Assembly: GCF_016903815.1 (NCBI RefSeq) | Contig: NZ_CP069973.1 | DNA: 64,000 nucleotides | Origin: Escherichia coli | Lineage (GTDB): Bacteria > Pseudomonadota > Gammaproteobacteria > Enterobacterales > Enterobacteriaceae | Reading direction: 5' to 3' (one strand) | Shown here: one piece after another, positions 36,622 to 39,600 of the stretch | How positions within the stretch are numbered: the stretch's first letter is position 1 | How the letters are laid out: each line of letters opens with the position of its first letter | Notes under the pieces: generated by a model | Database searches by the model: none | Told to the model about the DNA's origin: nothing | What the model saw: only the letters and a program-made list of their open reading frames with translations | Made by a program: the position numbers and the translations under genes

Positions 36622-39600
36622 TTACACCTTTTCCACATTCACAAGGAAGGACTTAAACTCTGGCGTCTGCGTGTTCGCATCACCAACGAATGGCGTTAAC
36701 GTATTGGCAATAAAGCCTTTTTTCGCAACACCTTCATAGCCCCAGTGAATCGGAATACCGATGGTATCGATATCTTTGCCGTTCGCTTTCAGCGTGCGAA
36801 TACGTTTGGTCACCACCGCTTTGGCTTTTATATAGCCACGGTTGGAGGAGACTTTCACTGTATCGCCCTGGGCAATGCCAAGTTTATTCGCCAGCGACTC
36901 ACCGATTTCCACAAACTGCTCTGGTTGCAAAATCGCGTTCAACAGCGCGTGTTTGGTCCAGTAGTGGAAGTGCTCGGTCAGACGATAGGTGGTTCCGACA
37001 TACGGGAACTTATCGGCTTTACCCAATGCTTCGGCGTCGTCTTTAAAGATACGTGCAGCCGGGTTCGAGATAACGTTTGGATGCAGCGGGTTAGTTCCCA
37101 GCGGCGTTTCAAACGGCTCGTAGTGTTCCGGGAACGGACCTTCCGCCATCTTATCGAGGGCAAACAGACGCCCCATGCCTTCCTGCTGCATGATAAACGG
37201 CCCAACGCCACTGCCCGGAGGCGCTGCGCTGTAGTCCGGAATATCCCAGCCGGTCCACTTAGTGCCGTCCCATTTCAGCAACTGACGCTTCGGATCCCAC
37301 GGGTTACCCTGCGGATCTGCGGAGGCGCGGTTATACAGAATGCGGCGGTTAAGCGGCCATGCCCATGCCCAGCCCAGCGTGTTACCGAGGCCAGACGGAT
37401 CGGCGTTATCACGACGCGCCATCTGGTTGCCCTCTGGCGTCCAGCTACCGGCGAAAATCCAGCAGCCACAGGAGGTGGTACCGTCATCGCGCAGTTGGGC
37501 GAACGAGCTAAGTTGTTGGCCTTTCTTGACGATAACCGCACCGGTTGCCGGATCGGTAATATCGGCCAGCGCCTTACCGTTGCTCTCCATCGCCACTTCT
37601 TCCGACTTCGGCTCATGCGGGATGGCGTAGTTCCAGGTCATGTTCAGCACCTGGTCCGGGTTCGCGCCACCCTGTTCGGCATACATCTTGCGCAAGCGCA
37701 GGAAGATACCGGAGAGGATCTCGCCGTCAGTCAGCGCAATCCCAGGGGCGTCCGCACCTTTCCAGTGCCACTGCAACCAGCGACCTGAGTTAACGATTGA
37801 ACCGTTCTCTTCCGCGAAGCAGGTCGATGGCAGACGGAACACTTCGGTCTGGATCTTCGACGAGTCAACTTCGTTCAGCTCACCGTGGTTCTGCCAGAAG
37901 TTAGAGGTTTCAGTGTTCAGCGGGTCGATGGTGACGAGGAACTTCAGTTTCGACAGACAACCGATCACTTTGTTTTTGTTCGGGAATGAGGCAACAGGGT
38001 TAAAACCCTGGCAGATATAGCCATTGACCTTGCCTTCTTTCATCATCTCGAAGTATTGCAGGACGTCGTAGCCTTTATCCCACTTCGGCAACCAGTCAAA
38101 GCCCCAGCTATTTTCCGCCGTCGCTTTATCACCAAAGAAGGCCTTCATCATAGAGACGAAGAATTTCGGGTAGTTGCCCCAGTAGTTTACCTGGCCTTCC
38201 AGCAGCGGTTTTGGCGTGTTGGCGGTAAGGTAGGTTTGCAGATCGGTCTGCTTCTCGCTTGGCAGCGTCATGTAACCCGGCAGGCTCTGCGACAGCAGCC
38301 CCAGGTCCGTCAGCCCCTGAATATTGGAGTGACCGCGCAGGGCGTTAACGCCGCCGCCGGCCATCCCCATATTGCCGAGCAGCAGCTGGATCATCGCCAT
38401 CGTACGAATGTTTTGCGCACCAACGGAGTGTTGCGTCCAGCCGAGGGCATACAGGAACGAGGCAGTTTTATCGTGTGCACTGGTTTCGGCGATGTATTCG
38501 CAGACTTTCAGGAACGCGTCTTTTGGCGTACCACAGATGTTTTCAACCACATCTGGCGTGTAGCGGGAAACGTGCTGTTTCAGCAAGTTCCACACGCAGC
38601 GCGGATGTTGCAGCGTGGTATCGCGTTTGGCGAAGCCGTTTTCGTCCAGTTCGTAAGTCCAGGAGGATTTATCGTACTTGCGTTTTTCCGCGTCGTAGCC
38701 GGTGAACAGGCCATCTTCAAAGCCGTAATCCTCACGCACGATAAGGCTAGCGTTGGTATAGGCTTCGGTATATTCGCGGTTGAATTTTTCATTGTTCAGC
38801 AGGTACAGCAATACGCCTGACAGGAAAGCAATGTCAGTACCGGAACGAATAGGGGCATAGTAGTCAGCCACCGCCGCCGTACGCGTAAAGCGAGGATCGA
38901 TCACAATCAGCTTCGCGCCGTTGTGAATTTTGGCTTCCATCGCCCAGCGGAACCCGACCGGGTGAGCTTCAGCGGCATTACCGCCCATCACCACGACGAG
39001 GTTGGCGTTCTTGATGTCGACCCAGTGGTTGGTCATCGCACCGCGACCAAATGTTGGAGCAAGACTTGCTACCGTTGGTCCGTGTCAGACACGCGCCTGG
39101 TTGTCGACCGCGAGCATCCCCAGCGCGCGGGAGAATTTTTGCGTTAAATAGCCGGTTTCGTTACTCGACGCGGAAGCACAAAGCATCCCGGTGGAGAGCC
39201 AGCGGTTAACAGTCACGCCTTCGGCGTTTTGCGCAATGTAGTTAGCATCGCGGTCTTCTTTCATCAGTTTGGCGATGCGATCAAACGCCTCTTCCCAACT
39301 GATTTGCTGCCATTTATCAGAACCTGGCGCACGGTATTCCGGAAACTTCAGACGGCTTTCGGAGTGGATGAAATCCACCAGGCCAGCGCCTTTCGGACAA
39401 AGTGCACCGCGGTTGACCGGGTGATCCGGATCGCCTTCGATATGGAAGATAGATGCTTTGGCGTTTTTTGCTCCGTCACCGAGGCTGTACATCAACAGCC
39501 CACAGCCTACGGAACAATAGGTGCAGGTATTACGGGTTTCGCGGGTGCGCAGCAGTTTATACTGCCGGGTTTCCGCGAGTGCTACGCTGGGTGCAAAACC

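Follow-up and report, generated by a model that had tools for sequence, protein, structure and literature searches.

The catalytic subunit of Escherichia coli formate dehydrogenase-O is encoded across an in-frame UGA, and we conclude, with a probability of about 0.97, that this codon, number 196 of fdoG, is recoded as selenocysteine (Sec) through the SECIS hairpin/SelB route. Both Sec196 of FdoG and its SECIS element are already known as textbook E. coli features and have entries in Rfam and RefSeq; the analysis brings no new biology, and its practical value lies in annotation quality. Gene callers that are blind to recoding still split fdoG, and the halves are widespread as separate public entries.

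The DNA analyzed here (hereafter the window) is a stretch of 64,000 bases, every one of which is matched in the genome of E. coli 7/2 (NZ_CP023820.1). The neighbors of fdoG were placed by the RefSeq annotation of the identical record together with the ORF list, and the signal peptide by its translation motif and an alignment with the 1KQF precursor:

36622..39672, minus strand: fdoG, encoding the catalytic (alpha) subunit of formate dehydrogenase-O; 1016 codons with UGA196 among them, followed by the stop codon
39574..39672, minus strand: twin-arginine (Tat) signal peptide of FdoG, residues 1-33 (MQVSRRQFFK...VALA)
35707..36609, minus strand: fdoH, beta subunit
35075..35710, minus strand: fdoI, cytochrome b556 gamma subunit
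34149..35078, minus strand: fdhE, accessory protein
39866..40699, plus strand: fdhD, accessory sulfurtransferase, divergent from fdoG

The gene stands first in fdoGHI-fdhE with fdhD divergent, which is the operon context of FdoG, and it shares 98.6% nucleotide identity with K-12 fdoG (b3894), differing by one amino acid, versus 77% amino acid identity with fdnG (b1474). Because of the fdoH-fdoI-fdhE/fdhD synteny and the closeness to b3894, we assign the gene at 36622-39672 on the minus strand to fdoG, not fdnG, in agreement with the initial annotation. Its codons differ from those of b3894 at 41 synonymous sites and one non-synonymous site (K689 here, S in K-12), while the operon context and the stretch running from the TGA to the end of the SECIS are the same in both strains. 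RefSeq labels this strain's fdoG as fdnG, a family-level naming, and the product is identical to a single RefSeq CDS, WP_011310337.1. The NCBIfam profile TIGR01553, the equivalog for FdnG/FdoG, spans residues 2-1015 unbroken at 1572 bits (cut-off 814). An S-R-R-x-F-F-K motif is visible in the translation, the precursor sequence of 1KQF can be aligned with residues 1-33, and signal peptide cleavage presumably follows residue 33, the predicted site. Pfam matches comprise Molybdop_Fe4S4 (residues 44-103), Molybdopterin and Molydop_binding, and the [4Fe-4S] cysteines C50, C53, C57 and C92 (NTC50TYC53SVGC57G and ALC92PKG) have the roles given for them in PMC3636253.

The recoded codon was located by sequence, by the 1KQF alignment, by homologues and by published mass spectrometry:

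39085..39087, minus strand: in-frame UGA, codon 196, read as selenocysteine

As the initial annotation had described, the ORF list breaks the gene at this single TGA into two ORFs of the same frame, one of 195 aa (39085..39672, minus strand) and one of 804 aa (36622..39036, minus strand). Translating 36622-39672 on the minus strand gives 1017 codons whose sole internal stop is codon 196, preceded by AVDNQARV and followed by HGPTVASLAPTFGRGAMTNHW; the reading frame stays open over 195 codons 5’ of the UGA and over 820 codons 3’ of it. On that strand the TGA (39087-39085) lies in GCG CGT GTC TGA CAC GGA CCA ACG GTA GCA AGT CTT GCT CCA ACA TTT GGT CGC. A structure search with X at FdoG position 196 aligned the protein to the FdnG structure 1KQF chain A over 1-1015 and set codon 196 opposite a non-standard residue, Sec196, so the proposed placement of the TGA at the expected Sec position is borne out.

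To survey homologues we ran the pattern GTNTGHCAYGGNCCNACNGTNGC, which permits TGA, TGC or TGT but requires the V-x-H-G-P-T-V-A context, on genome contigs. TGA was found in 119/119 homologues among the matches listed, from many genera, and an 80-nt segment containing it occurs in 5425 of 5426 complete E. coli genomes; we reject chance as the origin of the TGA because the same codon recurs in the same context throughout both sets. Cysteine variants (TGC/TGT), a natural control, were absent from the 120 matches listed within the V-x-H-G-P-T-V-A context. One of these matches, from Streptomyces, was left out of the homologues as a chance match with no homology outside the pattern.

The identity of the residue at 196 comes from the literature, which is also the source for the stop in translation seen in a selC mutant and for the parts played by U17 and G23 described below. 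In the peptide VU196HGPTVASLAPTFGR, identified by mass spectrometry, residue 196 was Sec and in no case Cys (PMC3636253); this peptide is the same in FdoG and FdnG, and it is therefore not assignable to FdoG specifically (PMC3636253).

Directly 3’ of the UGA and inside the coding region lies a hairpin that the initial annotation had put forward as a SECIS element:

39032..39090, minus strand: SECIS element, Rfam RF01989 (SECIS_3), cmscan match of 59 nt
39042..39082, minus strand: whole hairpin, made up of lower stem, internal loop and upper stem-loop, minimum free energy (MFE) -12.2 kcal/mol
39056..39073, minus strand: upper stem-loop GGUAGCAAGUCUUGCUCC, presumed SelB-binding minihelix, from fold and covariation

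That identification is upheld by a full-length match to RF01989 (model positions 1-59 of 59, with the UGA at positions 4-6) scoring 84.3 bits against a gathering score of 63 (E = 1.4e-18), and by covariation in the upper stem. The upper stem-loop begins 11 nt 3’ of the UGA, and GGUAGCAAGUCUUGCUCC folds as ((.(((((...))))))), with a bulged U17 at window position 39071 and apical-loop bases G23 (39065) and U24 (39064). A bulged U17 with loop G23 and U24 was established as the defining feature set on the fdhF SECIS, where U17 and G23 take part in SelB binding and the SelB-bound SECIS is needed for Sec insertion (PMC8659212). The folding check suggested in the initial annotation has little force by itself. 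The hairpin sequence quoted there is present and forms the MFE structure of both the 41-nt and the 59-nt segments, but its stability relative to shuffled sequences is weak: z = -0.77 for the 59-nt segment, with 39/200 shuffles equally or more stable, and z = -1.93 for the 41-nt hairpin, against z = -1.87 for an fdhF SECIS control. Folding energy thus does not discriminate, and we therefore put weight on the covariance model and on covariation.

Among 64 distinct homologous sequences, 99.8% of upper-stem cells are paired. Two pairs vary in a compensatory manner, 21-33 (GC 49, AU 10, GU 5) and 24-30 (AU 44, CG 17, GC 3, none unpaired), and the changes in both fall on synonymous third positions. 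None of 500 shuffles reached the observed score, and sliding the pairing partner by 1-3 columns left only 26-58% paired. G26 and T27 are invariant in the same alignment. The lower stem is about 87% paired across the 64 sequences in a register that depends on the clade (E. coli-type versus GGCC-type): the Rfam consensus register fails to pair A12-G44 and A8-C48 in E. coli, E. coli-type sequences are better served by the MFE register (GACCAA/UUGGUC), and neither fits all clades. The E. coli MFE fold extends the helix outward (columns 1-3/54-56 and 6-7/50-51), but we do not accept this extension as conserved, since roughly half of the sequences leave 3-54 and 6-51 unpaired.

The machinery that such an element would serve, which the initial annotation had proposed to look for elsewhere in the genome, was found in that of strain 7/2, where none of the four genes is marked as a pseudogene:

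NZ_CP023820.1 4058567-4060411: selB
NZ_CP023820.1 4060408-4061799: selA
NZ_CP023820.1 4138356-4138450: tRNA-Sec (selC), anticodon tca (UCA)
NZ_CP023820.1 2041568-2042611: selD

The host genome thus has the Sec-decoding trait, with selA, selB, selC and selD all present, and each sel gene occurs in 5424 or 5425 of 5426 E. coli genomes.

Three other accounts of the locus have to be weighed. Were the TGA a true stop, fdoG would amount to either a pseudogene or a pair of separate genes (195 aa and 804 aa); a mechanical ORF list does split it, each half is on record as a protein of its own for at least 1000 contigs, and translation does end at codon 196 when tRNA(Sec) is missing, as in a selC mutant (PMC3636253). 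Against a true stop, the TGA is kept in all of the listed homologues and nearly all E. coli genomes, and the TIGR01553 profile and the 1KQF protein cross the junction unbroken. Purifying selection on fdoG downstream of the UGA is strong, and the part 3’ of the TGA differs from K-12 by 39 synonymous changes and one non-synonymous change. The full-length selenoprotein has moreover been purified (PMC3636253, PMC3160892). For the species a true stop is already refuted, and this account has a practically negligible probability. The UGA might instead be read by a standard tRNA, through near-cognate suppression by Trp or Cys tRNA, with the hairpin merely slowing the ribosome or blocking release factor 2. 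Near-cognate tRNAs do give low-level UGA read-through in E. coli, and the residue entering at 196 is given by the literature and not directly by computation. That literature, however, reports Sec rather than Cys at 196, and a selC mutant lacks the activity (PMC3160892); in addition, the SelB-contact bases U17, G23 and U24 occur in the hairpin without variation, and the complete sel machinery is present. We regard decoding by a standard tRNA as exceedingly improbable.

It could also be argued that the hairpin is a by-product of the strictly conserved peptide HGPTVASLAPTFGRGAM, with no selection on RNA structure. Residues 190-217 are nearly invariant among homologues, so that the protein accounts for much of the nucleotide conservation, and the folding energy of the hairpin is unexceptional. 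But the variation that exists lies at synonymous third positions and covaries to keep 21-33 and 24-30 paired, and codon choice is narrowed exactly within the stem, where Thr200 is ACG and Ser203 is AGT in all of 112 distinct sequences. Within Enterobacterales, all synonymous sites are frozen from the TGA to about +68, whereas the flanks are 73-80% identical, and fdoG and fdnG share no identical run longer than the 71-nt SECIS segment, against 57.5% identical codons among those encoding the same amino acid elsewhere. These patterns make an origin as a peptide by-product highly improbable. As the SECIS sequence of fdnG equals that of fdoG, fdnG yields no compensatory changes and shows frozen synonymous sites only.

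Under recoding through the SECIS/SelB route, the mRNA just 3’ of the UGA would fold into the SECIS hairpin as the ribosome nears the codon, and the upper stem-loop (bulged U at +17, then G and U at +23 and +24) would be bound by SelB, a dedicated elongation factor loaded with GTP and with the UCA-anticodon Sec-tRNA(Sec). We infer such SelB binding for the fdoG hairpin in strain 7/2. SelB would then compete with release factor 2 to place the Sec-tRNA in the A site, and after Sec insertion translation would run on to the end of the frame. SelD and SelA make Sec on the selC-encoded tRNA, and Sec196, by homology with FdnG, is the active-site ligand of the molybdenum cofactor. When selenium or tRNA(Sec) is absent, translation halts at codon 196.

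The element compares closely with the known E. coli systems. K-12 fdoG likewise scores 84.3 bits against RF01989, as does fdnG, a paralogue that has Sec at the same residue number and its SECIS in SECIS_3; fdnG, whose product is the nitrate-inducible enzyme (PMC3160892), differs from fdoG in locus, belonging to fdnGHI and adjoining yddG and yddM. The fdhF SECIS (Rfam RF01988, SECIS_2) also lies in the coding region directly 3’ of the UGA. It shares with fdoG the flanking codons GUC UGA CAC GG.CC, and in both, equal distances separate the UGA from the upper stem’s G-G/C-C base, from the bulged U17 and from G23 and U24. By contrast, fdhF has a 4-nt apical loop, GGUC, where fdoG has GUC with a closing A-U (alternatively a 5-nt loop, AGUCU), the 3’ arm of fdoG is 1 nt longer, and the lower stem and encoded peptide differ; Rfam keeps the two as separate families.

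There is a small chance that the Enterobacterales element exceeds the modelled hairpin in size or sequence specificity. The frozen synonymous sites, common to fdoG, its paralogue fdnG and genera with flanks of just 73-80% identity, include some in the internal loop (columns 36 and 39) and some in the outer helix (3-54, 6-51), which is not kept in other clades. A larger element, if real, could mean extra SelB or ribosome contacts, or an Enterobacterales-specific extended helix enclosing the UGA.

The expectation in the initial annotation that automated callers would split the gene holds for public protein collections, in which the halves appear separately, but not for RefSeq/PGAP, which gives one CDS. 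Some of the separate half-protein entries bear a wrong name.

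Translation of window positions 36622-39672 (minus strand) yields 1017 codons with a sole internal stop at codon 196 (...AVDNQARV*HGPTVASLAPTFGRGAMTNHW...), a TGA at 39087-39085 on the minus strand that reads GCG CGT GTC TGA CAC GGA CCA ACG GTA GCA AGT CTT GCT CCA ACA TTT GGT CGC GGT GCG ATG ACC with its neighboring codons. A mechanical ORF list accordingly holds a same-frame pair, a 195-aa ORF at 39085..39672 and an 804-aa ORF at 36622..39036, exactly the arrangement of two ORFs split by one TGA described in the initial annotation. The solved FdnG structure 1KQF aligns across residues 1-1015 and places query position 196 opposite the chain's non-standard residue 196, which puts the TGA at the expected selenocysteine (Sec) position.

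All 64,000 bases of the window match E. coli strain 7/2 (NZ_CP023820.1, 4389499-4453498) base for base, and many E. coli genomes carry one annotated CDS of 3051 nt that is 100% identical to the gene. It is followed by fdoH, fdoI and fdhE, with fdhD divergent upstream and the frv and rha genes farther out, and shares 98.6% nucleotide identity with K-12 fdoG (b3894), with one amino acid difference (K689 in the window, S in K-12), versus only 77% amino acid identity with the K-12 paralogue fdnG (b1474). Judged by synteny and identity, the gene is therefore fdoG, as first assigned. RefSeq/PGAP names it "fdnG / formate dehydrogenase-N subunit alpha" because the equivalog TIGR01553, which bears the FDH-N name, matches both paralogues; in FdoG this NCBIfam match covers residues 2-1015 in one stretch at 1572 bits. 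Pfam matches comprise Fe4S4, molybdopterin and dinucleotide-binding domains, and the [4Fe-4S] cysteines C50, C53, C57 and C92 and a twin-arginine motif, SRRQFFK, can be read from the translation.

We considered whether the TGA might be a true stop, leaving a pseudogene or two genes. Compared with K-12 fdoG there are 41 synonymous codon differences and one non-synonymous; 39 of the former and the single latter fall downstream of the TGA, so these 820 codons are under purifying selection as protein. A homologue scan, using one genome per species and the pattern GTNTGHCAYGGNCCNACNGTNGC while accepting TGA, TGC or TGT, returned at least 120 loci, with TGA in all matches listed. Clear FdnG/FdoG homologues account for 119 of these, mostly from Proteobacteria with a few from other phyla; one Streptomyces match was discarded as a chance match. 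Conservation of the TGA, selection downstream of it and matches running unbroken across the junction exclude a true stop. Automated callers nevertheless do split the gene, as had been anticipated, PGAP excepted with its one CDS: the 195-aa half (39088-39672, minus) and the 804-aa half (36625-39036, minus) each occur as an exact separate protein, found on 1000 contigs or more; their clusters have 3382 and 6687 members. In Cronobacter and Hafnia, some of the 195-aa N-terminal fragments carry the name "sulfate ABC transporter substrate-binding protein".

Identification of the hairpin proposed downstream of the UGA as a SECIS element is supported. A gathering-threshold Rfam scan of the whole window placed SECIS_3 (RF01989, the fdnG/fdoG-type family; threshold 63 bits) at 39090-39032 on the minus strand, with 84.3 bits, E = 1.4e-18 and model positions 1-59 of 59 covered. 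K-12 fdoG and fdnG score the same 84.3 bits; the match of fdhF is to SECIS_2, a sister family, at 87.1 bits. With numbering from the U of the UGA (position 1), the upper stem-loop, which begins 11 nt beyond that codon, reads G15 G16 [U17] A18 G19 C20 A21 A22 G23 U24 C25 U26 U27 G28 C29 U30 C31 C32, with these features:

39071, minus strand: bulged U17
39065 and 39064, minus strand: loop nucleotides G23 and U24

By sequence comparison these match the features described for the fdhF element, where SelB makes its contacts with U17 and G23 (PMC8659212). RNA folding, suggested initially as a check, is a weak test when energy alone is used, with z = -0.77 for 59 nt and -1.93 for 41 nt against -1.87 for the fdhF control.

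Covariation tells whether this hairpin could be a mere by-product of the conserved peptide. The 119 homologues and the window gave 64 distinct 59-mers in a gap-free alignment; the search pattern had constrained columns 1-23 only, leaving third positions free and the 3' arm unconstrained. Pairing holds in 99.8% of cells of the upper stem, formed by columns 18-25 and 29-35. At pair 21-33, 49 sequences have G-C, 10 have A-U and 5 have G-U; at pair 24-30, 44 have A-U, 17 have C-G and 3 have G-C, with none unpaired. All four columns fall on third codon positions (Val201, Ala205, Ala202 and Leu204); the helix is thus preserved by covariation among synonymous sites, which excludes the by-product explanation. 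None of 500 shuffles matched the observed pairing or covariation score, and shifting the 3' arm 1-3 columns out of register reduced pairing to 26-58%. The codon repertoire shrinks precisely within the stem: across 112 distinct sequences Thr200 is always ACG and Ser203 always AGT, and Ala205 uses two codons versus four for other alanines. The longest identical run between fdoG and fdnG is 71 nt (codons 195-218); outside it, codons for the same amino acid are identical in only 57.5% of cases.

Fdh-O is one of the three E. coli selenoproteins, alongside Fdh-H and Fdh-N. Zorn et al. reported that UGA codon 196 of both fdoG and fdnG specifically directs Sec incorporation; they identified VU196HGPTVASLAPTFGR eight times, in no case with cysteine, and noted that translation ends at codon 196 when Sec-tRNA(Sec) is missing (PMC3636253). 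As this peptide is common to FdoG and FdnG, it cannot alone be assigned to either. Soboh et al., who describe fdoGHI with fdhD and fdhE flanking, found that a selC mutant loses Fdh-N/O activity (PMC3160892). The mass spectrometry and selC data contradict read-through of UGA196 by a near-cognate tRNA and exclude it. The UGA196 observation is thus confirmed and its reading as Sec supported; given the published data and a SECIS already curated in Rfam, the feature is correct, already known and of low interest.

The selenocysteine machinery is complete in NZ_CP023820.1, with no gene marked as a pseudogene:

4058567-4060411: selB
4060408-4061799: selA
4138356-4138450: tRNA-Sec (ARAGORN anticodon tca)
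2041568-2042611: selD

Among 5426 complete E. coli genomes, selAB occurs in 5425, selC in 5424 and selD in 5425, and the 80-nt UGA/SECIS segment in 5425, with a median copy number of two that reflects fdoG and fdnG. The parts of the pathway and their conservation are shown by these data. SelD makes selenophosphate and SelA converts Ser-tRNA(Sec) to Sec-tRNA(Sec); SelB with GTP binds Sec-tRNA(Sec) and, in strain 7/2, presumably the upper stem-loop of the fdoG hairpin, delivering Sec to a UGA in the A site in competition with release factor 2. Sec196 would then serve at the molybdenum centre, the FdoG precursor being exported via the Tat pathway. Outside the window, a tyrosine recombinase/integrase and non-core genes lie 300 bp after tRNA-Sec (NZ_CP023820.1 4138356-4139934; locus L011, 10357-11935), an arrangement that points to insertion of a genomic island at selC in strain 7/2; the adjacent tRNA-Sec gene is intact.

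The lower stem is less regular than the upper, with overall pairing of about 87%. Its register (39042-39082, minus; columns 9-16 and 41-49) differs between clades: in E. coli-type sequences GACCAA is paired to UUGGUC (12-45 A-U), and GGCC-type sequences adopt the Rfam register with C14 bulged (12-44 C-G), a register that leaves two mismatches on the E. coli sequence. An outer helix extension in the E. coli minimum free energy fold was rejected, as it is not conserved among homologues. From the TGA to +68 (about 39016-39090, minus), fdoG, K-12 fdnG and loci from Photorhabdus, Providencia, Yersinia, Citrobacter, Enterobacter and Klebsiella (L019, L022, L063 and others) are 100% identical in nucleotides, versus only 73-80% in the flanks. 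Between the UGA and about +68, all synonymous sites are frozen in both paralogues across Enterobacterales, slightly past the textbook picture. This dual-coding segment takes in a few synonymous sites that lie beyond the conserved helices, and in Enterobacterales the functional element could, with low probability, be larger than the modelled hairpin.

Elsewhere in the window, yiiG (40788-41429, plus) is truncated: compared with K-12, roughly 470 bp are deleted, including the start and first ~400 nt of the gene, and the junction (about 40788-40795) shows an 8-nt overlap; RefSeq lists it as a pseudogene with the N-terminus missing. Between typA and yihL, a full-length match to the Rfam 'Hfq binding RNA' STnc490 (8462-8585, plus; 146 bits) directly precedes an IS200C transposase gene (8595-9053, plus), a placement suggesting that the RNA match is the left end or 5' leader of this IS200 copy. 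Three further Rfam matches exceed threshold:

6389-6496, plus strand: ES222, between glnA and typA
58131-58208, minus strand: naRNA4 (CssrE), between yiiM and cpxA
63213-63254, minus strand: ES036 (CssrF), between pfkA and sbp

In K-12, four tandem naRNA4 matches adjoin yjcO, downstream of fdhF. The following annotated genes are possibly strain-variable:

18266-19141, minus strand: TauE/SafE sulfite exporter, inside the yih sulfoquinovose cluster
28510-30324, plus strand: transposase with a truncated ORF
31630-32232, plus strand: small nadS pair
46678-48072, plus strand: carbohydrate porin, between frvA and rhaM
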